Shown here in pieces: positions 15,365 through 52,780 of a stretch of 64,000 bases of DNA (position 1 is its first letter; each line of letters begins with the position of its first letter). The position numbers and the translations under genes were made by a program. The stretch is from Hyphomonadaceae bacterium. GTDB taxonomy: Bacteria > Pseudomonadota > Alphaproteobacteria > Caulobacterales > Aquidulcibacteraceae. Below the pieces are notes generated by a model. It saw nothing but the letters and a program-made list of their open reading frames with translations, was not told the DNA's origin and did not search any database. The stretch spans positions 41,886-105,885 of the forward strand of contig JAHBYF010000008.1 of the NCBI GenBank assembly GCA_019636095.1, written 5' to 3'.

Positions 15365-15393
15365 CCGGTCCCCTTGGCCCTGGTTGGGACCGG
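15365..15393 (+). other. Stem-loop immediately after the tRNA
   Basis: CCGGTCCC-cttggccctggtt-GGGACCGG, an 8-bp perfect stem with no T tract. Confidence 0.4.
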
Positions 15394-15512
15394 TCGCCTC
15401 GGGAAAAATCTCGCTCGTTCCGCGGCTTTGCATTTTTAATCCAAGGTAGAGAGACGGCCGTGGCGGCCCTCGACGGGCGCTGTTCTCGCCATTCTCTCTC
15501 CGGGCAATTTTG

Positions 15513-16124
15513 CTACTGTGGATTCAAACGCCAGAGAGAGGTTCGCAGGTCAACTGCTCGCCTAGCGTTTTTCTGAACTGGCCAGTGAAAGCGCGAAAAC
15601 AGCGTTCGCTGTTCAGCCCGCCGCATCGGCAAGTTTGCCTTGATGAGGCCGATGAGCGAGAGCCGCGAGGGCTGACGGCCGTCGAGGATCATCTTGATCA
15701 GATCCGGCGCCAAATACCCCAAATAGACTGGCGAGATCTCTTCCCGCTGAGCGAGCGCCTCTATCGAAACAACTTCGCCTGACGCCAGCAGATCTTGCCA
15801 TCGCCGCGCCTGAACGATCGCACGCACCAATGCGCGATCGACGCGCGGCGACGCGCTCTGATCATTGTCGAGGACCAAGCGACCGGAAGCCGGTCGCGCC
15901 AGCGCATGCTCAAACTCCAAGCGGACTAGTGTTGCGTCGCCATTTTCATCGGCTGATTGTAGCGCCAGCGCTTCGCGATCGATTTCGACGACGAGTTTCT
16001 TCGCGCCAAGTTCGGCTCGCTGAATGGCGTTGAAAACACCTTTGGGCGCGGCCGCTAGCCAATGACGATCCAAGTGCGGCGCCACCAGCTCGGCGATCGT
16101 CCTCTCAAGTTTCGGCGCCGACAC
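15513..16124 (-). pseudogene. C-terminal remnant of a serine recombinase family protein (catalytic N-terminus missing)
   Basis: RALVRAIVQARRWQDLLASGEVVSIEALAQREEISPVYLGYLAPDLIKMILDGRQP resembles the conserved C-terminal tail of large resolvase/invertase-type recombinases. No resolvase catalytic domain is present upstream. Confidence 0.6.
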
Positions 16125-16150
16125 CCGCGGTAAGCTGCTATCTTCGAAGC

Positions 16151-16348
16151 TTGTTGGTGGCAGGCTCGCTTGCCGTCATACGTTACGCGCAGAGACACGG
16201 CACGAAACGGCCTTGGTTGGTGAAGCTGCTGGAGCGAAGAACGTCAAAGATCGCCGCCGTGGCGATGGCCAACAAGATCGCGCGCATGGTCTGGGCGTTG
16301 ATGACCAGGGGCGAAAGTTACCGCGAGCCGGTTTTGCGGACCGCGTAA
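16151..16348 (+). mobile_element. IS110-family transposase C-terminal fragment
   Basis: 65 aa. KIAAVAMANKIARMVWALMTRGESYREP matches the typical IS110 C-terminal motif (ALANKLARI.W..L). No N-terminal DEDD domain. Confidence 0.55.
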
Positions 16349-16640
16349 CGAAACGCGCGTCCTCGCGGCGCGCACGAGGTTGGAAAGGGCAATTCGAGAT
16401 CATGTAAAACCGGTCGAGCCGGGGATCAGGGCGAACCCATTCATCCCAGAGCGTCTCTGAACGCGTGTTTTTGATCGGGATCTGATCCGCGGAGAGCATG
16501 AAGGCCAGCGGCGTTCGCGTCGCATCAAACAGGCCGGACACATGGGCGCACCGACCGCCGAGCATGATCAGAGATTTTCCTTGCCAGCAGGGTGCCGTCC
16601 ACACATGGGATGAAGGCGACGGTGAGTCACATCCTGAAGC

Positions 16641-17468
16641 TCAAGAATCCAGGGTCCTGTCCGGCAGCGGCATTTCTTCGGACAGCGGGGCCGCACCTGG
16701 CGGTCGACTTACAAGTCGCCGGGCCTTTGTGTCGCGCCGAAACTCTTGTGCGCGAGATAGGATGACTTCGTCGGCGAGTGTCGCGCGGCCGGCGCGTCGC
16801 AAGTGATCCATCCAAGTGGGGCTCTCGAATCGTTCGACCCACCTTGTCGGATCGTCGATGTCTTGCGCAACGCACCAGTTTCGAGCGCCGTTGCGGGTGC
16901 GTATCCGGCCTAGTTCGTGGAGCAGTTCCAGCAATCGTTCGGCTTGGTCTGCTGAGGCCTGATACTCAACCACGATCAGCAAAGGCCCGGTGTTTGCCTC
17001 GAGGCGGACGCGAGGAGGGCGAACGTCGTGGTTGCGAGGAGTCAGGTCCTCACTTGTCGTAGCAATCATAGTCCTCGGAACGAATACGCTTGCGATGAGG
17101 AATGCGCTGGCGGTCAAGCACGTAGATACGAGACCAAACCGACTGGCCAGTCCGCCGCATGCGGCGGCGCCAAGAGCCAGCGCACCCAGCGTCATTACCC
17201 GACCGACACCAACGCTTCGTCCGACAACCCACCGCGGGCTGGAGAGTTGGATGGCGCTGTTGAAGGTCGTCAGCGCCAAGACCCAGGCGAAGCCGCCGAG
17301 CGCCATGAAGACCAAAGTGACTGCAGTGATCTGACTTAGCGCTATTCCAGCGCTCGCGATCGCCGCCGCGATGGTCGCCAGCCTAATCTGCGACTCAGCT
17401 CTCGCGGTAGGTGTTTGCGAGAATGTCCGAAACTGTCGGATCGCGAAGCAGCGGTTCAAGTGGGCCAA
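16641..17468 (-). pseudogene. MFS transporter, C-terminal part only (5'-truncated)
   Basis: Only about 4 TM helices (IAAAIASAGIALSQITAVTLVFMALGGFAWVLALTTF...) plus a soluble tail. A full MFS protein needs 12 TM helices. Confidence 0.5.
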
Positions 17469-18203: not shown

Positions 18204-19922
18204 TTGTCAGAGACTCGCCGGCTCGCAGCGATTTTGGTGGCTGATGTAGTCGGCTATAGTCGCATGATGGGCGAAGACGAGGCTGCTACACTCCGTGCCC
18301 TGAGGTCTCTTTGGGCGGATGTCGTCGAGCCGTCGGCCGAACGAAACAAAGGACGCGTCTTCAAGTCAGTCGGTGACGGAAAGCTTATAGAGTTCTCGAG
18401 CGCGGTAGATGCAGTACGATGCGCTCTCGACATTCAAGAACGCCGGACCCTAGTTGAGCCGCCGCTTCGCATCGGCGTGCATGTTGGGGACGTCGTCATC
18501 GAGGATGGCGATCTTCTGGGTGACAGCGTCAACATTGCTGCAAGACTCCAGCAAGAAGCGCCAGCAAATGGCATTCTGGTTTCGGGCGCCGTTTACGACC
18601 AGCTTCGCGGGAAGCTCGGTATTTCCCTCAGCGATCTCGGTGAACTCAAACTCAAGAACGTCAGAACGCCGGTGCGCGCCTGGAAGTGGACAGCCGGCGG
18701 CGCGGGGTCGATGTCGGCGACGGGGGCGGACCAAAGCTCGACGCCGTCACTGGCGCTCATACCTTTCGTCAACATTGGCAATGATCCCGAGCAGGAATAC
18801 TTCGCCGACGGCTTGGTCGAAGACATGATCACGACTCTGGCTAAGCTCTCTGGTTTGACGGTGATCGCGCCGAACTCAACGTTTTTGTTCAAAGATCGCA
18901 AGGCCGACGCGCGCGAAACGGCACGCGCCTTGGGCGTTCAGTTCATCCTGGAAGGAAGCGTGCGCCGGAGCGGAGACCGCGTTCGGATTACCGTGCAATT
19001 GGTTGACGGGAAGAGCGGCGCCAGCCTTTGGGCCGAACGCTACGATCGTGCAGTGGAAGACTTGTTCGCGCTGCAGGACGAGATCACGCTGATCGTGGCG
19101 ACTGAACTTCAGGTGAAGCTCACCGAGGGTGAGCAGGCGAGGCTGCGGTATACAACAACGCAAAACGTGGAAGCCTGGACGCTTTGGGCGCAGGGTCTGG
19201 CGCACTACCGAACCGGCGTAATGACGCCGGAAGGGTCGGGTCGCGCCCGACAATTTTGGGAGCGTGCCCTCGAATGTGACCCGAACTCAAGCAACCTTCA
19301 CGGAATGCTCGCCACGCTGCGAGTGGCCGATGCGCGATTAGGCTGGTGGGGTACGCGCGAAGACGCCATAACGATCGGTATGGAGCACGCGCGCAAGGCG
19401 CTTGATCTCGATCCGAACAATGCTGACGCGCACCTTGCCGCCGGCATGCTACTTTATCTGCAACGGCGATTTGACGAAGCTGAGAACGCCGCGCGTCTCG
19501 CGCTCGAACTGGCTCCAGGCGCCGCCGACGTAGCAGCGCTTGCGGCGACTGTTCTTGCTGCGGGCGGCGCCTATGACGAGGCACTGAGTGCCATCGAAAG
19601 AGCGATGCGGCTCAGCCCTAAGCCCCCGGCCAACTATTTCGGCATTCAGGGCAACGTGCTTCGCCTAGCAGGCAAAGACATTGAAGCGACGGCGGCGTTT
19701 CAGACCTTATCGCGGCGCAACCCGGGTTTTGGACACCTTGATCTGGCGATCATTTATTACAAACAAGGACGGGCAGAAGAAGCGCGCGCGGAAGTCACCG
19801 AAGCGCTCAAGGCACGCCCCCGTCTTTCCGTGACCAGCTTCGCCATCACGCAAGTGCGTCGCAACGATGAAGCGTTAGCGGCAGATCTTGAGGCATTGAG
19901 GGCGTCTGGCCTCCCTGAGTAA
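18204..19922 (+). CDS. Class III adenylate/guanylate cyclase - TolB_N-like - TPR protein
   Basis: TTG start with GGAGG upstream. LAAILVADVVGYSRMMGEDE...FKSVGDGKLIEF...RIGVHVGDVVIEDGDLLGDSVNIAARL (cyclase domain). LALIPFVNIGNDPEQEYFADGLVEDMITTL (TolB_N-like). C-terminal TPR-like repeats. Confidence 0.8.
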   Translation: MSETRRLAAILVADVVGYSRMMGEDEAATLRALRSLWADVVEPSAERNKGRVFKSVGDGKLIEFSSAVDAVRCALDIQERRTLVEPPLRIGVHVGDVVIEDGDLLGDSVNIAARLQQEAPANGILVSGAVYDQLRGKLGISLSDLGELKLKNVRTPVRAWKWTAGGAGSMSATGADQSSTPSLALIPFVNIGNDPEQEYFADGLVEDMITTLAKLSGLTVIAPNSTFLFKDRKADARETARALGVQFILEGSVRRSGDRVRITVQLVDGKSGASLWAERYDRAVEDLFALQDEITLIVATELQVKLTEGEQARLRYTTTQNVEAWTLWAQGLAHYRTGVMTPEGSGRARQFWERALECDPNSSNLHGMLATLRVADARLGWWGTREDAITIGMEHARKALDLDPNNADAHLAAGMLLYLQRRFDEAENAARLALELAPGAADVAALAATVLAAGGAYDEALSAIERAMRLSPKPPANYFGIQGNVLRLAGKDIEATAAFQTLSRRNPGFGHLDLAIIYYKQGRAEEARAEVTEALKARPRLSVTSFAITQVRRNDEALAADLEALRASGLPE

Positions 19923-19941
19923 CTGCGGCCCACCGTCCATT

Positions 19942-20045
19942 TTCGGCGATGGCCGGCCCTAGCGGGCGCGACATCGCCAGCGGCAGGAATAGAGCGACTA
20001 GGCCGGTCGTGAATATGGCGATCAGCGCGACATTGGCCCAGTCCG
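19942..20045 (+). repeat. R repeat copy (3' half well conserved, 5' half diverged)
   Basis: 19987-20045 gaatagagcgactaggccggtcgtgaatatggcgatcagcgcgacattggcccagtcc aligns with 29527-29584 at about 75% by hand count. Confidence 0.55.
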
Positions 20046-20071
20046 GATATTGGTCCGCCGCCGCTCAGAAA

Positions 20072-22113: not shown

Positions 22114-22248
22114 TGCTTCCTTCGGAAGTGGGTCTGTGCGGAGATTTGTCTGCCTGTTTCAAGCCTTGCCAATCAATGCCCGGGGTTCGCTGTTGTTGTA
22201 CGAAGTCCCACCCCCGCAATGAATCGGTCGCTGATCAGCGATCCACTT

Positions 22249-24057: not shown

Positions 24058-24171
24058 CTCTAGGTTTTCCTGGAAGGCGCAACTCAGTATCAGAGCTGCG
24101 TGAGGCGCCCCCGGTTTCGCAGTCGAGCCGCCAGAGGAGTCCGGTCTGCATTGGTCGAATAGGCGAGGGGT

Positions 24172-28390: not shown

Positions 28391-28416
28391 GAGAGCGACA
28401 AGCTTTGGAGACTAAT

Positions 28417-28487: not shown

Positions 28488-28924
28488 ATGTTCGAGCTCC
28501 ACCTCTGGCGAATGGTCAATGACGCCCCCAACATCATTGGGAGGCGATACACTTCCTCGAGGACGAGAAAGAGTCTTGGCGTGAGGACGCTTGGCTTGGG
28601 GCCATGCCTCAACGGCTTCGCGAGAAACTGAGCCAAGCATATGACCAGACTGGTCTTCGGTTCAAAACTCTCACGTTGCGCAGCACGTTCGGTGGTACAA
28701 TCGTAATTGCGGCATTCGCTCAAAATCATCCGATGTCCGAAGGCATCGAACGTAGATTCCTTGAGGTGGTGGCGGCTCTGGCACCAAGCAGTTATGGGGT
28801 GATCTACACCCTCAATACCGACACGGAAGTGCCACGCGGCGAGTTCAACGTGCTCGAACTTGCTAATGGCAAAGTTGTGGAATCACGCGAATTGCTCGTC
28901 CAGCCACCCGACAAATTGCCATAG
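28488..28924 (+). pseudogene. Small cytoplasmic protein split by one frameshift (possibly Imm7-like immunity protein; tentative)
   Basis: ATG 28488 gives MFELHLWRMVNDA.... The frame changes near the C5 run at 28525-28529 and continues ...HHWEAIHFLEDEKESWREDAWLGAMPQRL... into track ORF 28604-28924 (APSSYGVIYTLNTDTE). The N-terminus recalls the MFEYHGW start of Imm7 proteins (memory only). Local GC is lower. Confidence 0.4.
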
Positions 28925-28937
28925 CCGGATGTCCGCA

Positions 28938-29040
28938 ATCGGCGAGAACACGCCGTTGTTGCATGCGCTAAGCCACTGTCCGCCATGGAGCGGGTAGGTC
29001 AGTCGCGAAAATTCGGGCTATGACGCTGGCTGGCCCATTC
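28938..29040 (+). repeat. R repeat copy (full length)
   Basis: atcggcgagaacacgccgttgttgcatgcgctaagccactgtccgccatggagcgggtaggtcagtcgcgaaaattcgggctatgacgctggctggcccattc. About 72% identical to 29483-29584 over 105 hand-aligned columns. Confidence 0.85.
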
Positions 29041-29043
29041 CAG

Positions 29044-29436
29044 TCATCGAAACAGAATGGTCACTCGCACCTCATCGGCTTGTCTCGGAGACGCTACCTG
29101 TCCGACTTGAATCAGAGTGTCAGGAAACCCTTGAACGACCATGACGCGTCGGACTTCCAGCCCTTTGCCTGGGTCATAGCTGGCGATCACCGCCATCAGA
29201 ACGTTGCAGGCGCGCGCGAGGTCAAGATTGGTGGTCAAGGAGTCGAGCGCGCTCGCGTCCAAATTCGTGCTCCCATGCTCAAAGTGAACGAGAAACTCCT
29301 GCGTCGCGCAGGGTGGTGGCCAAGGCGGCTCGACGATGGGCGGCGGAGCCGAGTCCTGTCTGAATGCAACGTTATCGAGCGCGCACCCGGCTAGGAGCAG
29401 AGCCAAGAGAACAGAGAATTGGGCGGTGAACGTCAT
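29044..29436 (-). CDS. Small lipoprotein, unknown function
   Basis: MTFTAQFSVLLALLLAGC lipobox from ATG 29436. The track start at 29493 lies inside the R copy. Confidence 0.6.
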   Translation of the reverse strand: MTFTAQFSVLLALLLAGCALDNVAFRQDSAPPPIVEPPWPPPCATQEFLVHFEHGSTNLDASALDSLTTNLDLARACNVLMAVIASYDPGKGLEVRRVMVVQGFPDTLIQVGQVASPRQADEVRVTILFR

Positions 29437-29482
29437 AGGAGTTCGACTGTATTCAAGGTCGCGATGATTGCGAGTGGCGTTT

Positions 29483-29584
29483 ATCGGCCACAACGCGCCA
29501 TTGCTGCGCGGCTAAGCCACTGACTAGAATGGAGCGAGTAGGCCGGTCGCTGAAATTCGCGCTATAGCCTAGCTTGGCCCATTC
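29483..29584 (+). repeat. R repeat copy (full length)
   Basis: atcggccacaacgcgccattgctgcgcggctaagccactgactagaatggagcgagtaggccggtcgctgaaattcgcgctatagcctagcttggcccattc. Confidence 0.85.
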
Positions 29585-29755
29585 GTGCCCGACGCCCTGA
29601 TCGCGGGAGAGACTTGAGACAGCCAAGCTCAAGCAATTCCTGTTTGCCGACGGCCCCGGCGCTCGCTGCCCTGGCTGGCCACGACTTCGCTCTGGTGTGG
29701 CTTAGGGTAGGTCCCCGGAACCCGAGAAATTATCGGCTCGCCGCGCCGCGAATCC

Positions 29756-30670: not shown

Positions 30671-30845
30671 CGGAAATCCCCAAGAGATTGTTTCTGCGAT
30701 TGGGATGCGATCGCGCCGCAGTTTGGATGCATGCGCAGCAATGACGCATTACGACGCCTTTGCGACGAAGCGTGGGGCCGATCTCACACGGCGACGTCCG
30801 GCGAACGTCTGTCATTCCTGCAGGTAGGGCGCGGCCGGCAGCTTT

Positions 30846-30898
30846 GGAGGGTGTAGGTCGGTCGCCGGATTTGTCGCGATGGCCTACGCTGGCCCATT
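30846..30898 (+). repeat. R repeat copy (3' half; 5' half weak)
   Basis: ggagggtgtaggtcggtcgccggatttgtcgcgatggcctacgctggcccatt aligns with the ggagcgggtaggtcagtcgc...ctggcccatt part of 28938-29040. Confidence 0.65.
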
Positions 30899-30964
30899 GA
30901 GACACTTTGAATCGGCATTATTGTGGCACCACAACGCGATCTTCGCTCGGGCTGACAACTGCCA

Positions 30965-33823: not shown

Positions 33824-33856
33824 CTCCGCTCTCCTGGCCCAACACTTCAGCAGACA

Positions 33857-33988
33857 TGCAATGGTGCGGCTCGCGAGCCAAGGCCGAATGAGTGACGCGC
33901 TGATATCGGGGCTAGTCGGAGGAGGAAGGTCACCCTCGCGAAGTGGATTGCGGGAACGCCGCTCGCACCACTGCGCCCAAGCTGGCCC
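33857..33988 (+). repeat. Degenerate, expanded R repeat copy (tentative)
   Basis: gcaatggtgcggctcgcgagccaaggccgaatgagtgacg aligns with gccattgctgcgcggctaagccactgactagaatggagcgag. aggtcaccctcgcgaagtggattgcggg aligns with aggtcagtcgcgaaaattcgggc. The copy ends in aagctggccc. Confidence 0.45.
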
Positions 33989-34180
33989 GCTAGCTCTTCG
34001 CGGCCCCGTTAGGGAGCGCTTCGAAGTCTGCCGATGCTGCGCCCCAGTCATCGTCTGGTCACTATTCGACGCACTGGCGGCTTTCACTGGCGTCGTGACG
34101 ACAGGGCTGCTCAGCGGATTGTGTCTCAACGGTTGCGGGGCGAGTGTCGCCTTGTTAGCGTTTTGGAAGGGGAGATCGAC

Positions 34181-37901: not shown

Positions 37902-38438
37902 GTGACGCTGACATTGAGGAGCCTCGGCGGCGCTGGAACTGTCACTGGGTCAAAACACTTGGTCGAGACGAGCGGTACACGCGTCCTCGTGGATTGTGGT
38001 TTGTTTCAGGGCTTGAAACACCTGCGCGAGCGCAACTGGCCCCCGCTGGCCGTGACACCTCAATCAATAGATGGCGTTGTCCTCACGCACGCGCATCTCG
38101 ATCACAGCGGCTACCTTCCAAAATTGGTGCATGATGGGTTTCGAGGCGTCGCCCATTGTACTGCGGCAACCATGGCTCTGTGTGACGTCCTGCTGAAGGA
38201 TAGCGCGCACATCGGTGAGAATGACGCCGAATACGCCAATCGGAAGGGGTTCTCAAAACACACGCCCGCTTTGCCGCTCTATACCGTGCGAGACGCCGAG
38301 CGCGCCATAGGGCGCCTGAGACCACGGCCTTTTCATACCGAGTTCGAGGTTGGCGCTGATGTTGGTCTTACGTTGGCCCATTTGCGACGTTCGCCCCGCT
38401 CCTGCTGCTTGGTATCTGAGGAGCGAAAACTTGTTTAG
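37902..38438 (+). pseudogene. MBL-fold/beta-CASP hydrolase, 3'-truncated after residue 160
   Basis: LRSLGGAGTVTGSKHLVETSGTRVLVDCGLFQG...VVLTHAHLDHSGYLPKL is the N-terminal third of a ~450-aa beta-CASP protein. Homology ends at ...GLTLAH (codon CAT 38379-38381), where AGHILG is expected. It is followed by 18 unrelated codons. Confidence 0.7.
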
Positions 38439-41003: not shown

Positions 41004-41106
41004 CTTTTTTCCTTTTTGAACAACCCACTCAGCTTTCCATCAGCAATTCATCAGACCTCGATTGTTGTCAACTTGGCCCGTTTTCACGCGTGCTTGCTCG
41101 CCGACA

Positions 41107-42141: not shown

Positions 42142-42298
42142 CCTGCTGCTCCAAATCCATCGACGAGACCGTTCCATGCAGTCAAAGAAGTGTTTCTCGG
42201 ACTCCGCCTGCAATCGTGAGGCGAGGTTTGCAAACGCCCAAACGCGCGCAGCGTTCACACATTGGGGATTGAGGTTAGCGGCAGACATTGCTCCGCGA

Positions 42299-43576: not shown

Positions 43577-43697
43577 GCGAGCGAAGCTGAGATAGTTAGG
43601 GGCTTACAGGAGTCCAATTTCGGGCGATCGTGAGCGGTTCACGCGGGGAGGAGGCGAGAGGCTGGATTTGATCGAGTGAGCCATTGACCTTGGCGGC

Positions 43698-44171
43698 TCA
43701 AAGAAGTGCGGGACGCGCCAGCATCAGCCAAACGATCCCAAGCACGCTGAAGAAGGCGGGGAAGCCGCACAAGAACCATGCCCGGAACAATTGGTAGTAG
43801 CGTGCGGGCAGCACTTCATTTCTTGCGACCGCTGATCGGGCGAGGTCGCGCATACGATGTTGCATCCACAAGACCGGCAACCAAAACGCTCCAGTGAGCA
43901 CATAGAGCCCCAGAGATAGCGCGATCCAACCTTCGGTGAGCGACCAGCCGGTCGCCTGAGCAAGTAGGGCGCCCGTAACCGGCTGGATCACGACGGCGCT
44001 CGCCGTGAACAGCCAGTCGGCAATCACCACCACGCCTGCTGTGTGCGCAATGATGCGCGGGTCCTTTGAGCGATGCGCCATCACCATGAAGAAGGCGATG
44101 CCGGCGCCGGTGCCAAGCAACACTGCGGCGCCAATGACGTGAAGCCAGCGAAGGAAAAGCGCGTACTCCAT
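43698..44171 (-). CDS. DUF2269-family integral membrane protein
   Basis: From ATG 44171, which overlaps the upstream stop (ATGA). MEYALFLRWLHVIGAAVLLGTGAGIAFFMVMAH; 4 TM helices. Confidence 0.65.
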   Translation of the reverse strand: MEYALFLRWLHVIGAAVLLGTGAGIAFFMVMAHRSKDPRIIAHTAGVVVIADWLFTASAVVIQPVTGALLAQATGWSLTEGWIALSLGLYVLTGAFWLPVLWMQHRMRDLARSAVARNEVLPARYYQLFRAWFLCGFPAFFSVLGIVWLMLARPALL

Positions 44172-45466
44172 CAGCGCTCCTCGATCAGCGCGGCTACCGC
44201 GAACGCCAGTGCAATGGCTGGGAGTATTTTCACGTACGGGCCCAATGGATCGGACCAAAGCGTAGGATTGGTCCAGGTTCCAAGTGCGATGTAGCCCAAC
44301 GAGACGATGATGGCGCTTGAGGCCGCCCGCCGAGCTGTCTTGCGAAAGCAGAGACCGACCCCGATGGCGATATCTAGAAGTGCGCCACCGATCACGAGCA
44401 TCATCGCTTGGTCCTCAAGTACGGTGCCACGCAGAACTGCCGCGGCTGCAGTCGCTTGGACCAGCGCAATCGCGCCGGAGGCCATCCAAAAGGTCGCCAA
44501 TGACAGGATGAGGAGCGGAAAGGTGAGTTGCGCTCGGGCGAATACACGTTCCTGCAAAGTCGCCGGCAGCGCGTTTAGCGACTCCGCTAGCGTCTTCAAC
44601 GGACGCCCGAGCGCCTGCTGGCCTTGATCTGGATCACCTAACACGTTTCCCGCGAGCACCTTGAGCGCGGTCGTTCGCAATGGGGATCGCCATCCGAGCC
44701 AGCCCGCTACATCGGCGCAAGATCCCAGCAGCGCGCCGAGCAATAGCGGTGTCGAAAAGATGAAATGAGCCGGGGCGAAGCCCAGCCAACTCCGAAAGGC
44801 CGAGATAGTTTCTGCCAAGGTGTGCGTCCTACGCTCCACCAAATCCACCTCACGGCGTACAAGACGGTCGGTTGTGATAGCAATGGCCACCGCATCGGCG
44901 ACATCTGAGACGGCGACGCTCTGAAGCCGCGCGTCGGGAAGCATCAGTGGTTGAACTGCAGGAAAGGCGGCGAGCATGCGCAATAAGGCGGTGCCGCCAT
45001 AAGCGTCAGCGCTGATCACGAGGCCAGGTTTCAGGATCGTCCACTCAAGTGAGCTCGCGCGCAGCGCGGCGTCCGCTTTGCCCTTCGTGCGCATGAACGC
45101 GGTGCTTGCGTCTGGCGTGGCGCCCGGCGCGGAAATCTGTACGTAGCGGCGCACGCCGGCATTTACGCATGCATTGACGAGCGCCACGATGGCTTCGTGT
45201 TGGGATGCCTCCAACCGGTCGATTGCGCCATCTTGCAGAGCGCCCGATGCGTTTACGACCGCGTCCACGCCACGTAGGTAAGGTGTCCAACGCTCAGGCT
45301 TAGTTAGGGTGGCGAGATCAGCGCCAACCCAATCGATGTTTGGGGCAAGCCGCTTGCCCTTAGCGTAAGAGCGGCCAAAGCCGACCACGGTCAGTCCGTC
45401 GGCCCGAAGCCGCCGTACAACGTCGGACCCGATCAGGCCATATGCGCCGAGGACTAGTACACGCAT
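44171..45466 (-). CDS. NAD(P)-binding (SDR/NmrA-like) domain fused to a DoxX-like membrane domain
   Basis: From ATG 45466. MRVLVLGAYGLIGSDVVRRL (Rossmann GxxGxxG). Hydrophobic C-terminal half with several TM helices. The track start at 45562 runs into the R copy. Confidence 0.7.
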   Translation of the reverse strand: MRVLVLGAYGLIGSDVVRRLRADGLTVVGFGRSYAKGKRLAPNIDWVGADLATLTKPERWTPYLRGVDAVVNASGALQDGAIDRLEASQHEAIVALVNACVNAGVRRYVQISAPGATPDASTAFMRTKGKADAALRASSLEWTILKPGLVISADAYGGTALLRMLAAFPAVQPLMLPDARLQSVAVSDVADAVAIAITTDRLVRREVDLVERRTHTLAETISAFRSWLGFAPAHFIFSTPLLLGALLGSCADVAGWLGWRSPLRTTALKVLAGNVLGDPDQGQQALGRPLKTLAESLNALPATLQERVFARAQLTFPLLILSLATFWMASGAIALVQATAAAAVLRGTVLEDQAMMLVIGGALLDIAIGVGLCFRKTARRAASSAIIVSLGYIALGTWTNPTLWSDPLGPYVKILPAIALAFAVAALIEER

Positions 45467-45519
45467 CGTCCCAGCTAAGGGGCTTTGGCCATCGAAGCAA
45501 AGCGACGCAATGACCGACT

Positions 45520-45618
45520 TCGGCGACAACACGCCATTGCTGCACGGCGCTAAGCCACTCACCGCAATCGATAGAGTAGGTCAGTCGCCCAAATCGTCGC
45601 GACGTGCTACGATGGCCC
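45520..45618 (+). repeat. R repeat copy (subfamily B)
   Basis: tcggcgacaacacgccattgctgcacggcgctaagccactcaccgcaatcgatagagtaggtcagtcgcccaaatcgtcgcgacgtgctacgatggccc. Confidence 0.85.
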
Positions 45619-45682
45619 TGAAAAGCCTTACATCGTCTCCGCACGACTTGTGTATCCATGCACTCTGCCGCTCACTGCATCC

Positions 45683-46198
45683 ATGAAATTTGTCCGCTCA
45701 CTCATTCTGCTTTGCTTAGCCCTGGTAGGTGGTCTGACGCTGAGCGCGCGTGCCGATCAGAACCTGACGGAACGCGTTCGCCCTCCCGCGCTGACGATGC
45801 CTGATGACTGCACATGGGAAACTGCGCGCGCTCTCTCGGTTGAGGAAATCTCACGAGACTACCTTGCTTTGTATGGCCAATGTGTGCGGACGCGCGGCAT
45901 ATCAGATGGAAATTCAATTGGACCGGACGAAGCCACGTTTCGCCGAGTGGATTGGGCTGAACTCGGCGTGATGTTTCAGAACGAGCCGTTGCCACCGGGA
46001 AGGTTCACAGACGCCGAGTTCCTCGGCGTGGTTGGTGCGTGCGAGTACGTTTGTCCGCCGATTGAAGAGCAGATCGTCCGTCATTCCGATGGCTCTGCGA
46101 CCATAAGGATATGCATGGCCACAGGCGTTTGCCATTGGTTTGGAGAATATCCGTATCTGTTGGCTAGGGATTTTCGCACCTTTACTCCGCACCCGTGA
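45683..46198 (+). CDS. Exported hypothetical protein (171 aa)
   Basis: Signal peptide MKFVRSLILLCLALVGGLTLSARA from ATG 45683; several Cys residues. Confidence 0.6.
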   Translation: MKFVRSLILLCLALVGGLTLSARADQNLTERVRPPALTMPDDCTWETARALSVEEISRDYLALYGQCVRTRGISDGNSIGPDEATFRRVDWAELGVMFQNEPLPPGRFTDAEFLGVVGACEYVCPPIEEQIVRHSDGSATIRICMATGVCHWFGEYPYLLARDFRTFTPHP

Positions 46199-46223
46199 AA
46201 CGCCAGCGCCTCTGCGTCCATAA

Positions 46224-46321
46224 ACGACGGCAACACGACGTTGCTGCATGCGCTAAGCGATTGACCGCAACCGATAGAGTAGGTCGCTCACTCGCGGAGT
46301 GCGCCTATCCGGCAACGGCCC
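46224..46321 (+). repeat. R repeat copy (subfamily B)
   Basis: acgacggcaacacgacgttgctgcatgcgctaagcgattgaccgcaaccgatagagtaggtcgc.... About 85% identical to 45520-45618 over the first ~75 nt by hand count. Ends in ...ccggcaacggccc. Confidence 0.85.
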
Positions 46322-46365
46322 GCGATATGATGCTTCTGAGTCCGAACTACTCATTGAGAACGGGC

Positions 46366-47082: not shown

Positions 47083-47297
47083 AGTGGTCTCCTGCGGAGT
47101 TTTCGCTGCACTTGCGACCTTAGCTGATGGCCTTGAGACTTCAAAGCGTCGCGAGCGACACCGGAGGTTGGTTGAGCGGTTGTCGAGGGCGCGGCGCAAA
47201 GGCCTTTCCCGATGGACAGAAAGCGACTGGCGAGAATATCTTGGCGTCGGTTTCGCAAGAGGCGAACCTGCATGTTCGTGAGCGGGCCGAGGTCGAC

Positions 47298-50200
47298 ATG
47301 GTGAAAAGTGGACGTCGCGCGCGTTCTTTGCGCTGGCACCTGCTCGCGGGAGCACTCTTTTGTTCGCCGGCGTTGGCGTTGGTCGCGCATGCCGAGACCG
47401 GGTCAAGCACGCGGGTGGACGCCGCCGCCGAAGTGGCGACCGTCGTATTTCAGGCGTCGGCTACCCAGTTGGCGGCGCAACGATTGGCGGACGACAATCT
47501 TCGCCGTGCAAACCTAGAAATCGAGCGCTTACGCGCGCAGGGCGAGGCGGCGCGCATTGAATTGGCGTCTGCCGAAGAGAGGTTTGTCGCCGAATTATCG
47601 GTGCGAGATGAAGCGTACCGTCAAGAAATTGCTGTCTATCGCGGCGCCGTCGAAGACATCGCGTCGACACCAGAGGGTGTTCGAGCGCTCGCGCGCTACA
47701 ACGCCGGAGACGTTGATGGCGCGCTGTCGATTGTAGATCGTTTGGCAGACGCTCGAGCTCGAGCGCGACGTGCGGGCGCCGACCTTGCTGAGGCTGTCGA
47801 CCGGCGAAACATAGCGCGTTTGGCGCTGGATGCGTTGCGCAGGGGGCAGGGCGAGACGCGCAACGTGATTGCGCGCTACGAAGACGTCGTGCGTCTCGAT
47901 CCCAGCAACGCTGATGACTGGCTTGAATTGGCGCGGCTTGATCGCGATGCTCATAGACTGGCCGAGGCCTCTGGCGCCGTAGAGAGCGGTCTGCGCGTGG
48001 CGGAATCGGATCGCGCACGCGGACTGTTGGCCATCGAGCGCGGTCTAATTGCGGGCGACCGCGGTGACACCGCGGGGAGTCGAGCGGCTTTCAGTGATGC
48101 GAGAACAGCTTTGGCTGCGCGCGCCGAGCGCGAACGTACCGACGTTGTTGCGCAGCGAGATTACGTGGAGTCGCTTTATCGTTCCGCAGATGTCGCCTCC
48201 GATGAGCTAGAAGCGGGGACGCTGCGGGCGGAGGCGCTAGAACGCGCGCGCGCATTGGTCGCCGAAAATCCAGGGGATATCGCCGCCCGGCTTGCGCTCC
48301 TGTCAGTTTTTGATTCGCTCGCGGGCGATGCTGCGGCGCGGGAAGACTACCGCACTGCTCTTGCCACGCTGGGTGAGCAGAGCGATGCGCTAGAACGCCT
48401 TTCCGAAGCGGGATTGGACGCAGACGGCGGCATCGCGTTGCGCCGAGCACGTGCTCGGATGGCAATCGCGATCGCTGGAGTTTTCTCTAGGCTAAGGCTT
48501 AGTGACGACGAACTCGACGCTCGACTCTCTGCGATGCAGATATATAGCGCGATATCGCGTGCAGATCCAACAAGTGCGCTGGCGCGCGAAGACCTTGCCA
48601 ATGCGCAGATCGACTATGGTGCGGCTGCGCTCGGAAACAACATCACGTTTCAGAGCGACGACGGTGGCGATGCCATAGACGGGGGGGATCTTGTCGAAGG
48701 CGGTCTGCAAACTTTGCGCGAATTGGCGCTCGCCGAACCCGATAACCACCTTGTTCAGATTCAACTAGCGTCGCGCCTATTGAACGCTGCGCGTGTGATG
48801 TTTGCAGAAGAACGTTACCGCGCGCGTGGCGATGAACTTCTTAACGAAGCGGTGACCCTGGGGGGAAGATTGGACGCGGGGGGCGCCGGCGTTGAGGAGA
48901 TTGGGCCCTTGCTGACGTTTGGTCTGCTGGCTCGAGCAGCCCCATTCGAGCGCGTGCAGGACTGGCCGAACGCGATTGCCGCGTATGACGAGGCAATCAG
49001 GCAACAACAAAGGGTTCTTGCCGCTCGGAACCGCGACGACACAGAAGACTTCAATTTTCTCGAAGTAGCCCTGCTAGGCAAGGCTGAGGCGCAACACGCT
49101 TCCGGAGACGCGCGGGCAAGCCGCGCGACCTTTGCAGCGGCAGTTATGGCGGTTCGCGAAGCACAACGTCACGCCAGAAGCAATCCGGCCGAGCAGGCGC
49201 TCGTCGCGAACATGTACAAGGGCTTGGGCCTACACCTCTTAAGGGTGGGAGAGGCGGAAAACGCCCAAGACATGTTCGAGCGTGGCTTCGCCATCCAGGC
49301 GCGATTGGCGTCGGCCGACCGCGAGGTTGGCGTGTTCACCGACGATTTCCGCGACGATCTTTTGGATGTGGGCGAACGCCTCGGGGCAGTTGCCGGCGAC
49401 GATGTGCGAGCCCGTTATGTCGAACAAGCGGTAGATCTCTACCGCGAAGCTGTTCGACAGCAACCTGATGAGGTGGGGCAGTGGGAGCGTCTTGAGGAGA
49501 CGCTTGAGCGGGGAGCGCGTATCTACGCAAACGGCGCGGATGAGGCGCATGCTCTGCGGCTCTACAGGGAACGCGCTGCTGCATTGGAGCGCGTCAACGC
49601 GCTTGGACGATCGCGCGCGGTGTCTTTGGTGTTTGCCTATTTCGACGTGGCTGACAGCGAAGCTGACGAGTCGGCTGCATCGCACGCGTTAGACCACGCT
49701 GTCGATTTGGCGCGGTCTGTGTTTCAAAATGATCCGTCACAACAAGTATTGTTGGTGACAGCGCTTGGACATCGCGCGGACTGGAAGGAGAGGCACGGCG
49801 CCTTCGAAGTTGCACTTGCGGATGTGGATGATGGCGTAACCAACGCGCGAGAGGCTGCCACGGCTCATCGGGACGTACGCTTTGCGGCCTCCAATCTCAT
49901 CCGACTTGCCTTGATTGGCGCCAAAGCGGCGGAGGGCCTCGCGGATTCCACACGTGCGTGGGGTTATTTGGAGCAAGCGACGGCGGCTTCACGACAATTT
50001 TCCGCCGAGTTTGCTCAAGATCAGGAAATGCAGCGACTCGCTGCACGCGCGCTTGCGATGGAAGCGGATCGCGCTGAGGCGCAGGGACGTAGAGCAGCTT
50101 TGATGTCGCTTGAAGGCGACATTCTAGCGGTCGATCGCCGATTGGCGGCATTGCAACCCGGCGATAGCGACGCCCAACTTCAAATGGCGCAATCCGCAGC

Positions 50201-51629
50201 TCGTTTTGCCTCATGCCAAGGACAAGGCTGCGCTCCGATGGAGATGAGGCTGCAAGCGCTCGCGGACGCGAGAGCAGCGTTAGACTCGGTGCGTGAAAAT
50301 GAAGACGTCCGCACAGATGTGATCGGACGTGTCGTTGGGGCGTTCTTGTTGGAGGCGCAAATTCACCACGGTCTTGGTGACGACCAAGCGGCGAGAGCGG
50401 CTTACCAGCAAGCACAGGTGTGGTTGACGACTGCGGTTGCGGCGCACACGGATGATGCTGCAGTTCAAGTGGAATGCGTACGAGGCGTTGATTACATCGC
50501 GCAGTCAATGAGCGCAAATCTGAGCCAAGCCGAAGGCTTCGCGGTATACACGACGTTGATCCATTCGCGGCAAAACGCGGTTCGGAGCGCGCCTGGAAAT
50601 GCAGCTGGAGCCGTCGGTTTGCTGAACGCCTCCGAGGTCTGGGCCGGTGCGCTTGCGCGCGTCAATCGCGAGGGTGATGCGATTGACGCGCTCCGCGATG
50701 GACTCGCTCAGGCCATGCCAGTTGTTGTTGTTAATCCTGACAACGAGATGCTTGTTGGTCACGTCGTGATAGCGCAGACGCAGTTGGCAAACCTATTGAA
50801 GGAGACTGGAGCGGTCGAGGAGGCCGAACGTGCGGCGCGTAGCGCGCTTGACGCGGCGCGCGCCTTTTCTGGGCGTGCCCCGGAAGAAGCGCGTCACACG
50901 GCCATGGTGGCGCGTGCGTCCTACTGGGTATCGAACACCGGTCTTGCGGTCGTCTCTCATGACGATGGTGTTGCCGGTTTGATTCAACTGCGTCAGTTGC
51001 ATCAGGCACTAGTCCCCGGCAGCAATGTCAGCGATGTGAACGCGATGTTGATGTTTGAGCTGCAGAATCGTGCCCCAACGCGGCGCGCGGCCCACGACTA
51101 TCGCGGCGCAGTCGATGACCTCTCCCTGTTGAAGGAGATATATGTAGCAACGAATGAGTCGGGCGATCGTATTGAAAGCGCTTATGCCCGGGCAGTGATC
51201 GATACTGAGCTTGCGCTTAATCTGAATGACCTTGAGGATTACGCCCACGGTGAGGCTTCGGCGGCCAGTGCGGTCGAGGGACTCACACATGTCGTAGAGA
51301 CCGTCGGCTCACGCGACAACCAACGGGCCCTGGCGCGCGCGTTGATCGCGCATGCGGATGCACTCATACTATTGGGTCGCAGCCAAGATGCTGGCCCAGA
51401 GCTTGATCGCGCCTTGAGCTTATTTCTGGCATTGGCAGCGCCACCCGACGGCGAGGCGGAAGATCGCACTGGGCGCGGGTTGGCTTATTTCCGGTTCGCT
51501 GCGATTGGTCGCGCGCCTGCGGCGTGGGCGCCGCCTCCGCCGGAGGTACATCGATATCTGAGCGCCACCGACCTACGCATGTTGGCTTTGGCCGCCGCGG
51601 CGAATGTGGCGGCGCCCGCGCAACACTGA
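47298..51629 (+). CDS. Giant exported all-alpha repeat protein (TPR/Sel1-like by eye), 1444 aa
   Basis: ATG 47298. Signal peptide MVKSGRRARSLRWHLLAGALFCSPALALVAHAE. Ala/Leu/Arg/Glu/Asp-rich helical repeats throughout. The track start at 47127 overlaps the divergent gene. Confidence 0.7.
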   Translation: MVKSGRRARSLRWHLLAGALFCSPALALVAHAETGSSTRVDAAAEVATVVFQASATQLAAQRLADDNLRRANLEIERLRAQGEAARIELASAEERFVAELSVRDEAYRQEIAVYRGAVEDIASTPEGVRALARYNAGDVDGALSIVDRLADARARARRAGADLAEAVDRRNIARLALDALRRGQGETRNVIARYEDVVRLDPSNADDWLELARLDRDAHRLAEASGAVESGLRVAESDRARGLLAIERGLIAGDRGDTAGSRAAFSDARTALAARAERERTDVVAQRDYVESLYRSADVASDELEAGTLRAEALERARALVAENPGDIAARLALLSVFDSLAGDAAAREDYRTALATLGEQSDALERLSEAGLDADGGIALRRARARMAIAIAGVFSRLRLSDDELDARLSAMQIYSAISRADPTSALAREDLANAQIDYGAAALGNNITFQSDDGGDAIDGGDLVEGGLQTLRELALAEPDNHLVQIQLASRLLNAARVMFAEERYRARGDELLNEAVTLGGRLDAGGAGVEEIGPLLTFGLLARAAPFERVQDWPNAIAAYDEAIRQQQRVLAARNRDDTEDFNFLEVALLGKAEAQHASGDARASRATFAAAVMAVREAQRHARSNPAEQALVANMYKGLGLHLLRVGEAENAQDMFERGFAIQARLASADREVGVFTDDFRDDLLDVGERLGAVAGDDVRARYVEQAVDLYREAVRQQPDEVGQWERLEETLERGARIYANGADEAHALRLYRERAAALERVNALGRSRAVSLVFAYFDVADSEADESAASHALDHAVDLARSVFQNDPSQQVLLVTALGHRADWKERHGAFEVALADVDDGVTNAREAATAHRDVRFAASNLIRLALIGAKAAEGLADSTRAWGYLEQATAASRQFSAEFAQDQEMQRLAARALAMEADRAEAQGRRAALMSLEGDILAVDRRLAALQPGDSDAQLQMAQSAARFASCQGQGCAPMEMRLQALADARAALDSVRENEDVRTDVIGRVVGAFLLEAQIHHGLGDDQAARAAYQQAQVWLTTAVAAHTDDAAVQVECVRGVDYIAQSMSANLSQAEGFAVYTTLIHSRQNAVRSAPGNAAGAVGLLNASEVWAGALARVNREGDAIDALRDGLAQAMPVVVVNPDNEMLVGHVVIAQTQLANLLKETGAVEEAERAARSALDAARAFSGRAPEEARHTAMVARASYWVSNTGLAVVSHDDGVAGLIQLRQLHQALVPGSNVSDVNAMLMFELQNRAPTRRAAHDYRGAVDDLSLLKEIYVATNESGDRIESAYARAVIDTELALNLNDLEDYAHGEASAASAVEGLTHVVETVGSRDNQRALARALIAHADALILLGRSQDAGPELDRALSLFLALAAPPDGEAEDRTGRGLAYFRFAAIGRAPAAWAPPPPEVHRYLSATDLRMLALAAAANVAAPAQH

Positions 51630-51649
51630 AAGACTGGAGGGCGCGGACC

Positions 51650-52687
51650 ATGGCTGAGATATTCATATCTTATAAGCGCGAAGACGAGACGCGCGTCGGC
51701 AAGCTCGTCACTGCTTTACAGCAGGCTGGTCAGTCGCTCTGGTGGGATCGTGGCTTGCCTGGCTCGGAAAGCTGGCGCGAAAACATCCAGCGCGAGCTTG
51801 ATGGGGCCAAAGTTGTTATTGTTTGCTGGACGCGCGCGAGCGTAGGTTCAGCTGGTGATTTTGTGCGCGATGAAGCTGGACGCGCAAAAGAGCGCGGCAT
51901 TCTCATCCCTGTTCTTCTAGAGCCGGTTCGCCCGCCACTGGGGTTTGGCGAATTGCAGGCGATTGACCTCAGCCATTGGCGGGGCTCGCTGCGCGATCCG
52001 TTTTTTGGCGATCTATTGGCTGTTATCGAGTCCAAACGTACCGGCGCTCCAGCGCCCAGCCCGAAGGGGCCGATGCGTCGCCTCATGCGTCGTCTCACAA
52101 TTGGTTCTATCGCCAGCGCGCTCGCGGCAGGGATATTCGGCTTTTCAATGAACGTACTGCGCATACAGGACCAGGCGTGCACCCTGAGCATAGGGCAGCC
52201 TGGTCTTTCTGACGTTTGTGGCGCTCTCGGTTTGGGCGGACGCCCATCGCGAGAAGCGCGCCTCGCCTGGGAGGCTCTGCCGCCAAACGATTGCCAAGCG
52301 CTGCGTGGTTTCCGCGAGCGCTTTGAAACAAGTCCACTGCGTGCACTCGCTGACAGCCGCTTAGCCAGCCGACGCATCGTTTCTGCCGAGCAATGGATTG
52401 AGAGCGATCGCCAAGATCCGGTGCTATTCGAACCGGCGAGCGGCGCGCCGCTACCTAGTCAGTCCGCAGCGCAAGCCGCGGCGATAACGCGTGCCCAACT
52501 TAGCGCTGAGCGTCTGTGCCGGGCGTTCGGCGCGAGCAGTATTTTTCGCTATCGAGGCGCGCGCCCAGTTGCGGAAACTTGGCGATGTGAGCGGAGCGAG
52601 GCGGGATATAGTTGCGGATTCGAGGGCCGAGCCGACTGCGATCTTCAAGAAAGGCGCGTGAGCGAGTCCGAAGTCTGCGGAAACTAG
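51650..52687 (+). CDS. TIR-domain protein with one TM helix and a Cys-rich extracytoplasmic C-terminal domain
   Basis: ATG 51650 with GGAGG upstream, 20 nt after the giant gene stop. MAEIFISYKREDETRVGKLVTALQQAGQSLWWDRGLPGSESW...VVIVCWTRASVGSAGDFVRDEAGRA (TIR_2-like). TM helix LTIGSIASALAAGIFGFSMNVL. The C-terminal ~170 aa contain 8 Cys. Confidence 0.8.
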   Translation: MAEIFISYKREDETRVGKLVTALQQAGQSLWWDRGLPGSESWRENIQRELDGAKVVIVCWTRASVGSAGDFVRDEAGRAKERGILIPVLLEPVRPPLGFGELQAIDLSHWRGSLRDPFFGDLLAVIESKRTGAPAPSPKGPMRRLMRRLTIGSIASALAAGIFGFSMNVLRIQDQACTLSIGQPGLSDVCGALGLGGRPSREARLAWEALPPNDCQALRGFRERFETSPLRALADSRLASRRIVSAEQWIESDRQDPVLFEPASGAPLPSQSAAQAAAITRAQLSAERLCRAFGASSIFRYRGARPVAETWRCERSEAGYSCGFEGRADCDLQERRVSESEVCGN

Positions 52688-52689
52688 AT

Positions 52690-52780
52690 GTTGTCTCTCT
52701 CGCTCGTCAGCGACTCGCTTCCAGGACCGCCCGGCGCCTGGACGACTAGGCCGTCGCGTGCGCACCCGGCAACGCCCCCC
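52690..52780 (+). repeat. Degenerate R repeat copy (tentative)
   Basis: gacgactaggccgtcgc aligns with gagcgactaggccggtcg of the 19942 copy. cccggcaacgcccc aligns with tccggcaacggccc of the 46224 copy. Confidence 0.4.

Follow-up and report, generated by a model that had tools for sequence, protein, structure and literature searches.

Integrons are the textbook platform for the capture and shuffling of single genes. In a survey covering 243 alphaproteobacterial genomes, neither an integron, an In0 element nor a cluster of attC sites lacking an integron-integrase (CALIN) was found, an absence termed ‘extremely puzzling’ (Cury et al., PMC4889954). Here we describe an intergenic repeat, termed R, that bounds gene cassettes in a 64,000-nucleotide stretch (‘the window’) from an alphaproteobacterium, Hyphomonadaceae bacterium (GenBank assembly GCA_019636095.1, a metagenome-assembled genome; contig JAHBYF010000008.1, 183,710 bp long, positions 41,886 to 105,885), and that recurs as same-strand arrays in many related genomes.

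Several other systems are relevant to a repeat of this kind. In the internal resolution site of Tn4430, used by TnpI, and in the Xer sites cer and psi, the core crossover lies at one end of a site of ~116–250 bp, and the remainder consists of extra recombinase or accessory-protein motifs that impose directionality. Those sites are single-copy, resolve dimers or cointegrates, and to our knowledge have not been described as boundaries of cassette arrays. The dRS3/RS mosaic elements of Neisseria are intergenic units of 50–150 bp with short flanking inverted repeats that serve as recombination hot spots; we know of no case in which such Neisseria intergenic mosaic elements (NIMEs) form strand-uniform arrays separating gene cassettes. 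The res site of Tn3 and gamma-delta, which a serine recombinase binds and cuts with a 2-bp stagger, is composed of sites I, II and III of 28, 34 and 25 bp. The Tn3 version spans 114 bp, binds a resolvase dimer at each of the three sites, undergoes crossover at the middle of site I, and has sites I and II separated by a 22-bp linker (PMC2602789; bioRxiv 10.1101/2021.12.07.471667). Finally, the rAID-1 clusters of Bacteroidales are rows of small genes that run in one direction, among them polymorphic-toxin immunity families, with repetitive intergenic sequences ‘reminiscent of integrons’ between them (Ross et al. 2019, bioRxiv 10.1101/471110), and are defined by a XerD-like recombinase gene at their 5′ end together with low GC content.

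We favour, as somewhat better than an even proposition, the reading that R is a duplex recombination site of ~121 bp with three binding sites of the dimer type, and that it marks off the cassettes of integron-like arrays in a group of Caulobacterales.

Results

R copies in the window

The preliminary description of this stretch, made from its letters alone, reported four full copies of a ~100-bp repeat, two ‘3′ halves’ and eleven degenerate candidates, all in one orientation, and proposed that they cut the whole accessory region into modules of one to three genes. The four full copies and their mutual similarity were upheld by a repeat finder and by hand-seeded alignment, with nhmmer E-values of 1e-12 to 2e-28. 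A profile built from these four copies and run with filters off returned exactly six matches in the window, all on the plus strand. After the profile had been enlarged with relatives and iterated to convergence it identified seven copies, again all on the plus strand, spanning 19.9–46.3 kb, and separate sub-site models located in addition a solitary 3′ sub-site at 38.4 kb (Table 1). As had been claimed, nhmmer found no copy in the core blocks (1–15 kb and 53–64 kb). R is therefore real and non-random.

Other parts of that description required correction. The two presumed 3′ halves, at ~19987 and ~30846, proved to be full-length divergent copies. Among the eleven degenerate candidates only that at 43586–43630 was borne out, as a partial, decayed R; the other ten gave no match even at E ≤ 50. 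The proposed partition of the accessory region had depended on those ten, and R consequently marks about 8 boundaries rather than the whole of 15.4–52.8 kb.

The solitary sub-site (site III in the nomenclature below) lies at the 3′ end of a truncated open reading frame (ORF) of the metallo-beta-lactamase fold, which matches only positions 10–90 of the 196-position Lactamase_B profile; this N-terminal fragment (37902–38438) runs into the site.

Distribution and strand uniformity

A pattern search of a genome collection with 21 fixed bases returned 11 loci, all of them in Terricaulis, Hyphomonadaceae, Caulobacteraceae or unclassified alphaproteobacterial metagenome-assembled genomes (MAGs), and a second pattern returned 16 metagenome contigs. 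Hidden Markov model searches brought the R family to 98 copies in 28 sources, at densities of up to ten per 8 kb. Within every source (28/28) all copies share a strand; the sum of (n − 1) over sources, counted at E < 1e-5, is 44, corresponding to a chance probability of about 2^-44. A further locus (L031; related loci are cited by such numbers) carries nine more co-oriented copies. R is conserved across genera, and its cores (the part between the two terminal boxes defined below) form subfamilies that are distributed independently of the cassettes. Taxa that bear R include those represented by JADJCG01, JAIELJ01 and JAXMCH01, whereas no copy turned up in 21 kb from Ca. Viadribacter (CP013244). 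A pattern search of viral contigs gave no match, and neither the sequence nor a description of R was found in the literature searched.

Two side observations concern copy arrangement. The orientation of R follows the leading strand or else the local coding strand, two possibilities that GC skew does not separate here. In L019 (733–941, minus strand) two copies, covering model positions 1–110 and then 50–117, lie ~30 nt apart with no cassette between them, and could be the product of cassette loss.

Anatomy of R

A conservation profile built on 56 unique full-length copies with their flanks indicated that R is ~121 bp long, longer than first described, and that its two best-conserved blocks are TCGGCGA, close to the 5′ end, and TGGCCC, close to the 3′ end. 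Similarity between copies had been thought to stop at TGGCCCATT, and terminal inverted repeats to be absent. Instead, a conserved 3′ box (GCGGWCRTT) comes after that motif and a 5′ box (AAYGWCCGC) precedes the element as originally drawn, and the position frequency matrices of the two boxes are exact inverse complements, Y/R degeneracy included. The box motif recurs at position −12 on the plus strand in 36 of 52 copies, at +35 on the plus strand in 31 of 52 and at +101 on the minus strand in 23 of 52, against a background of 0.5%; the additional, direct copy lies 47 bp downstream of the first.

We then took half-sites around the six near-invariant G-N-C triplets of R and set them in a common orientation. 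The six putative half-sites (GAATGTCCGCT, CAACGGCGTGT, CACTGACCGCA, GACTGGCCTAC, CGATGACGTAC and CAACGTCCGCA) have the common consensus S-A-M-Y-G-N-C-S, in which the G and C are near-invariant (0.8–1.0 per position). Their mean pairwise match is 5.6 of 11 positions, compared with 2.91 ± 0.43 for random placements within R (0 of 2000 as high). They are arranged as three dyad-symmetric sites, I, II and III, of about 26, 25 and 26 bp, with centres 46.5 and 44.5 bp apart and a linker of about 21 bp between sites I and II. TCGGCGA is the dyad centre of site I and TGGCCC that of site III, such that the order along R is I-L (the 5′ box), spacer TCGGCGA, I-R, site II (ACTGACC-N15-GGCCAGT), III-L, spacer TGGCCC and III-R (the 3′ box). 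By analogy, this layout is that of a multi-dimer recombination site, and the architecture of boxes and dyads is the main clue to mechanism.

R also contains a near-invariant GCTAAGCC at consensus positions 85–92 (for example, window 28967–28974). This resembles the −10 consensus of Caulobacter sigma-73 promoters (GCTANAWC), with a spacing to a TTG-type −35 element that fits poorly.

Breakpoints between genomes fall in two spacers of R

An all-against-all comparison of loci, conducted with R masked, yielded a number of informative pairs. The loci L006 and L015 have 1538 bp in common at 98.9% identity, a stretch bounded by two successive R copies. At its left-hand R (R_a) the flank is 57% and the 5′ box 45% identical, while the spacer and core are 100% identical, and identity begins exactly at TCGGCGAG. 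At the right R (R_b) the flank is 98%, the 5′ box and spacer 100%, the core 85% and the downstream sequence 43% identical: perfect identity extends through the 5′ box and CGGCGAC, drops to the level of the family as a whole, and is absent past the element.

Two other cassettes were compared. A duplicated cassette within L005 is identical from GCGGACGTT, which is preceded in its two copies by R cores that differ strongly, as far as TCGGCGACG in the following R; at that downstream R the flank is 97%, the 5′ box and spacer 100% and the core 66% identical. A cassette common to L015 and L026 (96%) ends immediately after TCGGCGA, with subsequent cores of unrelated types (flank 98%, 5′ box 91%, spacer 100%, core 55%). 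The left end of the latter cassette keeps a rare CCCGAC box, which places the break within the TGGCCC spacer or ahead of it. Two comparisons, A5 and A6, gave left boundaries at site III.

The module containing a short-chain dehydrogenase (SDR) gene provided a comparison across four genomes (the window, L028, L029 and L030). A 5′ box (...CAAAGCGgCGCAaTGtCCG) is kept upstream of the SDR gene in all four, an R core follows it in the window and L028 only, and the sequence beyond the box or R differs in every genome. Nucleotide homology between the window and L028 covers window positions 43640–45526, the last of these being the final base of TCGGCGA; homology to L029 and L030 stops at 45516, at the end of the 5′ box, and the L029 and L030 sites lack a 3′ box.

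Five or six breakpoints map to TCGGCGA, and the synteny breaks and presence/absence differences between genomes coincide exactly with the conserved blocks of R. In these alignments the switches fall in the two spacers, and 3′ box, ORF and 5′ box are inherited as a unit, whereas the core (I-R, II and III-L) goes with neither neighbour.

A different explanation for the same pattern is that the ~100-bp core of R, which extends from TCGGCGA as far as TGGCCC, represents a small mobile element of the non-autonomous type that inserts into a palindromic target (AAYGWCCGC / GCGGWCRTT), perhaps via single-stranded DNA, giving a strand bias tied to replication. The boxes do segregate with flanking DNA rather than with the core, the 5′ box upstream of the SDR gene exists in genomes without a core, target-site duplications are lacking, core subfamilies are distributed independently of cassettes, and GC skew on R's strand is positive at 16 of 19 loci (p = 0.004), all of which speak for such an element. 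We nevertheless regard it as unlikely. An empty palindromic target was not found, and the L029 and L030 sites have a 5′ box without a 3′ box; the DNA on the far side is unrelated between genomes, unlike the outcome of a simple insertion; R has no subterminal hairpins or stable fold, and no IS200/IS605-type transposase was detected; and dense arrays would demand clustered targets.

The breakpoints bear equally on the proposal that R is an intergenic mosaic repeat (similar to NIME/dRS3, to bacterial interspersed mosaic elements (BIMEs) or to Rhizobium intergenic mosaic elements (RIMEs)) or three clustered operators of a dimeric DNA-binding regulator or nucleoid protein, in which case modules would be reshuffled by homologous recombination only. 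Three dyads with a common half-site, sequence conservation without structure, the position of R ~36 nt upstream of co-oriented ORFs and the failure to see a dedicated recombinase would all suit such an element. The breaks are concentrated in two blocks of 6–7 bp rather than spread over ~120 bp, however, and the cores on their two sides are 55–85% identical, which makes them a poor RecA substrate. In addition, mosaic repeats are not known to occur in strict same-strand arrays, and R contains no sigma-70-type promoter. We consider this proposal improbable.

Cassettes between R copies

We analyzed the ORF content of 55 gaps of 150–1500 bp between R copies, including ORFs that overlap the edges of R. 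The longest ORF lies on R's strand in 36 gaps and on the other strand in 19, and ORFs covering at least 70% of the gap number 33 on R's strand versus 15 on the other (Wilcoxon p = 0.002). The median distance from R to the ORF start is 36 nt, and the ORF stops are concentrated at, or a few bases from, the following 5′ box; in L005, all ten gaps contain a plus-strand ORF of 100–200 amino acids that stops at the next R. A filter on GC content at third codon positions did not discriminate the coding strand.

The majority of cassettes lack a Pfam family; the families that were assigned include Imm7, SUKH-1, TIR, GNAT, SDR, thioesterase and adhesin-like genes as well as a hydroxylase. In L016, a fatty-acid hydroxylase, a GNAT gene, an ORF without known relatives (ORFan) and a metallo-beta-lactamase-fold gene follow one another, with a co-oriented R between each. 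Searches for exact matches to the proteins of the cassette and Imm7 ORFs found none on record.

Movement of individual cassettes is illustrated by the single-gene cassette at 45650–46198 of the window. Its homolog P0121 (82% amino acid identity; 80% identity over the cassette) also lies between two R copies, in L031, in an array otherwise unrelated to the window, and the R cores upstream of the two cassette copies belong to different subfamilies. A more distant homolog (57% amino acid identity) is present in L034 (574–1229), beside a PIN/FitA-like toxin-antitoxin pair on a 2-kb contig in which R was not detected. The DUF2269 and SDR/DoxX module has orthologs in L028, L029 and L030. The suggestion that site-specific events at R assembled the region as a cassette-like array is supported by same-strand arrays in many related genomes, by the tight packing of ORFs between copies and by inter-genome breaks within the conserved blocks.

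Such arrays invite comparison with ordinary integron remnants, i.e. CALINs with divergent attC sites. Both have ~120-bp same-orientation repeats between mostly ORFan, mostly co-oriented single-gene cassettes, and the terminal boxes of R end in AAY and RTT, which recall AAC and GTT. On the other hand, R forms no hairpin on either strand, lacks RYYYAAC/GTTRRRY cores, has a central region conserved in sequence rather than palindromic, and breaks mainly at the 5′ rather than the 3′ end of the repeat. No IntI accompanies the arrays: the sole IntI-like match scores 181 against a TIGR02249 cut-off of 265, and is part of an IS91 element. The identity of these arrays as CALINs is in our estimate extremely improbable.

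Tests of R against known classes of repeats

Single copies of R did not fold stably on either strand with DNA or RNA folding (z from −0.85 to +0.39), and consensus folding of 26 and of 56 copies by RNAalifold, with RNA or DNA parameters, gave ~0 kcal/mol and no compensatory changes on either strand; z-scores overall ranged from about −1.3 to +0.4. Pairing between the 5′ and 3′ arms within a copy is no better than pairing with the arms of other copies (permutation test, p = 0.57). The earlier statement that R has no internal hairpin thus holds insofar as nothing folds stably, and fails insofar as three internal dyads are present. Rfam 15, searched at gathering as well as permissive thresholds, matched only the tRNA-Met in the window, and had no match at E ≤ 1 in a dense array. 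We observed no sigma-70-type promoter or intrinsic terminator in R, no target-site duplications around it and no empty palindromic (box-box) target sites. RYYYAAC/GTTRRRY cores are absent, with only the AAY/RTT triplets of the boxes reminiscent of them.

These results rule out attC, repetitive extragenic palindromic (REP) or enterobacterial repetitive intergenic consensus (ERIC) sequences, a classical miniature inverted-repeat transposable element (MITE) and a structured RNA, and for attC, REP and MITE they agree with the preliminary description. For attC, four of five defining features (an imperfect hairpin of paired R and L boxes with extrahelical bases, the cores, an adjoining IntI with its additional domain of ~35 residues, and a cassette boundary at the 3′ end) are missing; the fifth, same-orientation repeats between short cassettes that are common to different arrays, is present. 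REP/BIME, ERIC and RIME-type palindromes form stable stem-loops that R does not have. A classical MITE carries its own terminal inverted repeats, is flanked by target-site duplications and inserts in either orientation, whereas the boxes of R are part of its flanks, no duplications surround it and it is 100% strand-uniform. A coding repeat was rejected since all six frames are closed on inspection by hand (TAA and TAG are invariant in the four full copies, and TAG in all six), and promoter motifs for sigma-54, extracytoplasmic function (ECF) sigma factors and Caulobacter sigma-73 were rejected for unsuitable spacings in a comparison by eye.

The idea that R is a structured RNA (a small RNA, a leader or a 3′ untranslated region element) repeated beside accessory genes would account for its intergenic position, its fixed strand, its frequent co-orientation with neighbouring ORFs and its conservation across genera. 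The lack of Rfam matches at E ≤ 1, of structure or compensatory changes in RNAalifold and of terminator or promoter signals, together with the z-scores given above and breakpoints at dyad centres for which an RNA offers no explanation, makes it very unlikely.

Search for a recombinase

We examined 40 window ORFs (a part of the total) with Pfam, and used tblastn with hand-typed probe sequences (IntI1, XerC, Cre, the gamma-delta resolvase TnpR, Hin and the IS200 TnpA). No Resolvase domain was present in the ORFs run through Pfam, the TnpR and Hin probes gave nothing real, and the tblastn search detected no IS200/IS605-type transposase. The upstream array ends of L010 and L004 contained no recombinase.

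Three sets of candidates from related loci were considered and rejected. L011 (1821–3900) contains an IS91-family Y2 transposase and a 295-residue tyrosine recombinase that matches the integron-integrase model best, below its cut-off, with its best stretch covering only positions 4–180 of the 315-position profile; the recombinase is an accessory gene of the IS91 element, 2 kb away from a lone R. In L031, an integrase is represented by a C-terminal fragment beyond the end of the array that has no counterpart elsewhere. Weak recombinase-like tblastn matches by R in L023, L016 and L006 correspond to a membrane protein or to the antisense strand of a real gene.

Gene content of the accessory region

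The features of R and of its cassettes in the window are listed in Table 1.

Table 1. Positions of R copies, the solitary sub-site and R-bounded cassettes in the window
Feature	Coordinates	Strand	Details
R, divergent, full length, sites I–III	19931..20054	+	nhmmer 19934–20046, E 2e-16; sub-site model matches I 19931–19962, II 19976–20009, III 20028–20053; begins ~10 nt past the stop of + ORF 18204–19922
Imm7 immunity-family gene	28604..28924	+	Pfam PF15585, E 5.5e-9; stop 28922–28924, next R begins 3 nt later
R, canonical	28927..29048	+	nhmmer 28929–29044, E 2e-28, and alignments; 5′ box 28927–28936, TCGGCGA 28939–28945, TGGCCC 29031–29036, 3′ box 29040–29048
Short cassette between two R copies	29052..29471	+	ORF ending 29394; no Pfam family
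R, canonical	29472..29592	+	nhmmer 29474–29586, E 2e-23; site I spacer TCGGCCA 29484–29490, TGGCCC 29575–29580
R, divergent subfamily (GGCAGCTTTGGAG type), full length	30786..30909	+	nhmmer 30789–30899, E 1e-16; 76% identity to the R beside the SDR gene in L028
Solitary site III, GATGTTGGTCTTACG-TTGGCCC-ATT-TGCGACGTT	38355..38393	+	site III model, E 0.0015
R, partial and decayed, sites I–II only	43612..43685	+	nhmmer E 2.5e-4; adjoins DUF2269 stop (43698); partial R also at the orthologous position in L028 (5163–5239)
Two-gene module, DUF2269 and SDR/DoxX	43698..45490	-	Pfam; R on both sides, inverted relative to R
R, canonical	45509..45631	+	nhmmer 45509–45622, E 8e-23; 5′ box 45509–45517, site I spacer TCGGCGA 45520–45526, TGGCCC 45613–45618
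Single-gene cassette, 182 amino acids	45650..46198	+	no Pfam family; R on both sides
R, 5′ two-thirds canonical, 3′ third degenerate	46211..46330	+	nhmmer 46215–46290, E 1e-12, and alignment; site I spacer ACGACGG 46224–46230

The region contains further genes of conflict or defence type besides Imm7: two TIR-domain proteins (31654–32685, minus strand, and 51524–52687, plus strand) and a putative amidoligase (32774–34129, minus strand). TIR homologs are also found in the R arrays of L009, L029 and L031, and the genes beside the upstream ends of the arrays in L010 (2401–5819) and L004 (1096–2754) are an AAA_5 ATPase with DUF5682 and a GmrSD-type restriction endonuclease. R arrays may sit in defence-rich neighbourhoods.

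Several genes in the region are fragmented or duplicated. The C-terminal half of an MFS_3 gene is found at 16641–17468, and a TonB-dependent receptor is split into Plug and barrel pieces (25512–26636 and 27758–28390) about 1.1 kb apart. Two tandem paralogous plus-strand ORFs (41062–42141 and 42131–43576), with no Pfam family, have a 241-nt 3′ stretch that is 76% identical (41881–42121 versus 43319–43559). Just past the last R lies a plus-strand ORF of 1500 amino acids (47127–51629), also without a Pfam family and with a sub-threshold TPR match only.

The precise left edge of the accessory region is occupied by a tRNA-Met gene (15287–15363), and positions 1–28 of L028 are identical to its 3′ end. 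Relative to the tRNA, the SDR module and R copies of L028 are inverted as compared with the window. A second copy of this 28-nt tRNA 3′ end, as would be left by an island att scar, was not found in the window. The GC content of the window is 57–63% throughout.

Discussion

A possible mechanism

If R is a recombination site, its enzyme would act in trans, as is the case for the CALINs of integrons. In the mechanism that we propose, a dimeric site-specific recombinase whose gene lies in another part of the genome would bind the six related half-sites and carry out strand exchange in the spacers of sites I and III, with site II serving as an accessory site that, together with the asymmetric layout, would set polarity. 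Each cassette would then carry half of site III on its left and half of site I on its right, and could be deleted, inserted or swapped between arrays through I × I and III × III events or, alternatively, through a double exchange similar to recombinase-mediated cassette exchange; it is because the two spacers differ that all three outcomes would be available. Orientation would be preserved throughout and the R core would be left behind. A res-like site with two crossover points that differ in spacer sequence would explain the strand uniformity, the extremely strong conservation of the spacers, the common half-sites, the inheritance of cassettes from box to box and the solitary site III beside a truncated gene.

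A number of points weigh against the interpretation of R as a recombination site. No recombinase was found in the window by the Pfam and tblastn searches described above, and 34 related loci (~240 kb) yielded only the IS91-linked recombinase of L011 and the integrase fragment of L031, which leaves the enzyme hypothetical. The three dyads could equally be operators for a regulator. The breakpoints are few (some 6 for site I and 2 for site III), and those of site III are resolved only to ~10 nt. Copies in the window are sparse (7 in 26 kb) rather than forming a dense array, and all relatives that bear R are MAGs or metagenome contigs. Finally, the GC skew on R's strand (measured at loci of at least 2 kb; mean +0.033) is such that a replication-linked strand bias could add to the uniform orientation.

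With these points in mind, we put forward more tentatively, as a possibility on the doubtful side of even, that the R arrays represent an undescribed system of cassette capture and exchange, parallel to integrons and mechanistically distinct from them, with a non-folding 121-bp site of three dyads, two crossover points and a recombinase acting in trans. R itself would be a new type of site for cassette arrays, and the chance that it is a system of its own is substantial.

If this is correct, the architecture of cassette arrays evolved more than once, and the absence of integrons from Alphaproteobacteria would be partly answered. The available toolbox would gain a novel recombination site, together with what is probably a novel recombinase specificity, and the presence of two heterospecific crossover points per repeat would amount to a natural form of recombinase-mediated cassette exchange. 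A pool of mostly ORFan cassettes, including immunity (Imm7 and SUKH-1), TIR and GNAT genes, would become accessible to study. Because the site is defined to the base pair, the hypothesis lends itself to direct tests.

Comparison with known systems

R arrays resemble integrons and CALINs in having directly repeated sites of ~60–140 bp in one orientation; short, mostly single-gene, co-oriented and ORFan cassettes; the same cassette in different arrays; terminal boxes that are complementary only at the level of the consensus; and arrays that can lack a neighbouring integrase. They differ in several respects. R lacks the hairpin and the RYYYAAC/GTTRRRY motifs of attC, and its central ~85 bp are conserved in sequence and built of dyads. 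Whereas an attC repeat travels with its upstream gene and has its boundary at the 3′ end, R breaks at two spacers and its core travels with neither cassette. No IntI is found at R arrays, and the host is an alphaproteobacterium.

The res sites of Tn3 and gamma-delta resemble R in their length (~114–120 bp), in their three dimer-type sites of inverted half-sites, in the linker of ~21–22 bp between sites I and II and in a crossover or breakpoint at the centre of site I, at one end of the element. Their function depends on direct repeats (PMC2602789; bioRxiv 10.1101/2021.12.07.471667), and R likewise occurs as direct repeats. In contrast, res is present once per transposon or plasmid, beside a resolvase gene, and supports deletion only, while R forms arrays of as many as 10 copies in 8 kb that have no resolvase close by. 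The three sites of R are also of near-equal length, and its site III, unlike that of res, appears to act as a crossover point as well.

The nearest described analogue outside integrons is rAID-1, which similarly includes immunity genes among its cassettes (Imm7 and SUKH-1 in the case of R). R arrays are distinguished from it by the absence of a XerD-like gene at the 5′ end and of low GC content, by their occurrence outside Bacteroidales, and by a broader cargo that includes GNAT, SDR, hydroxylase and TIR genes.

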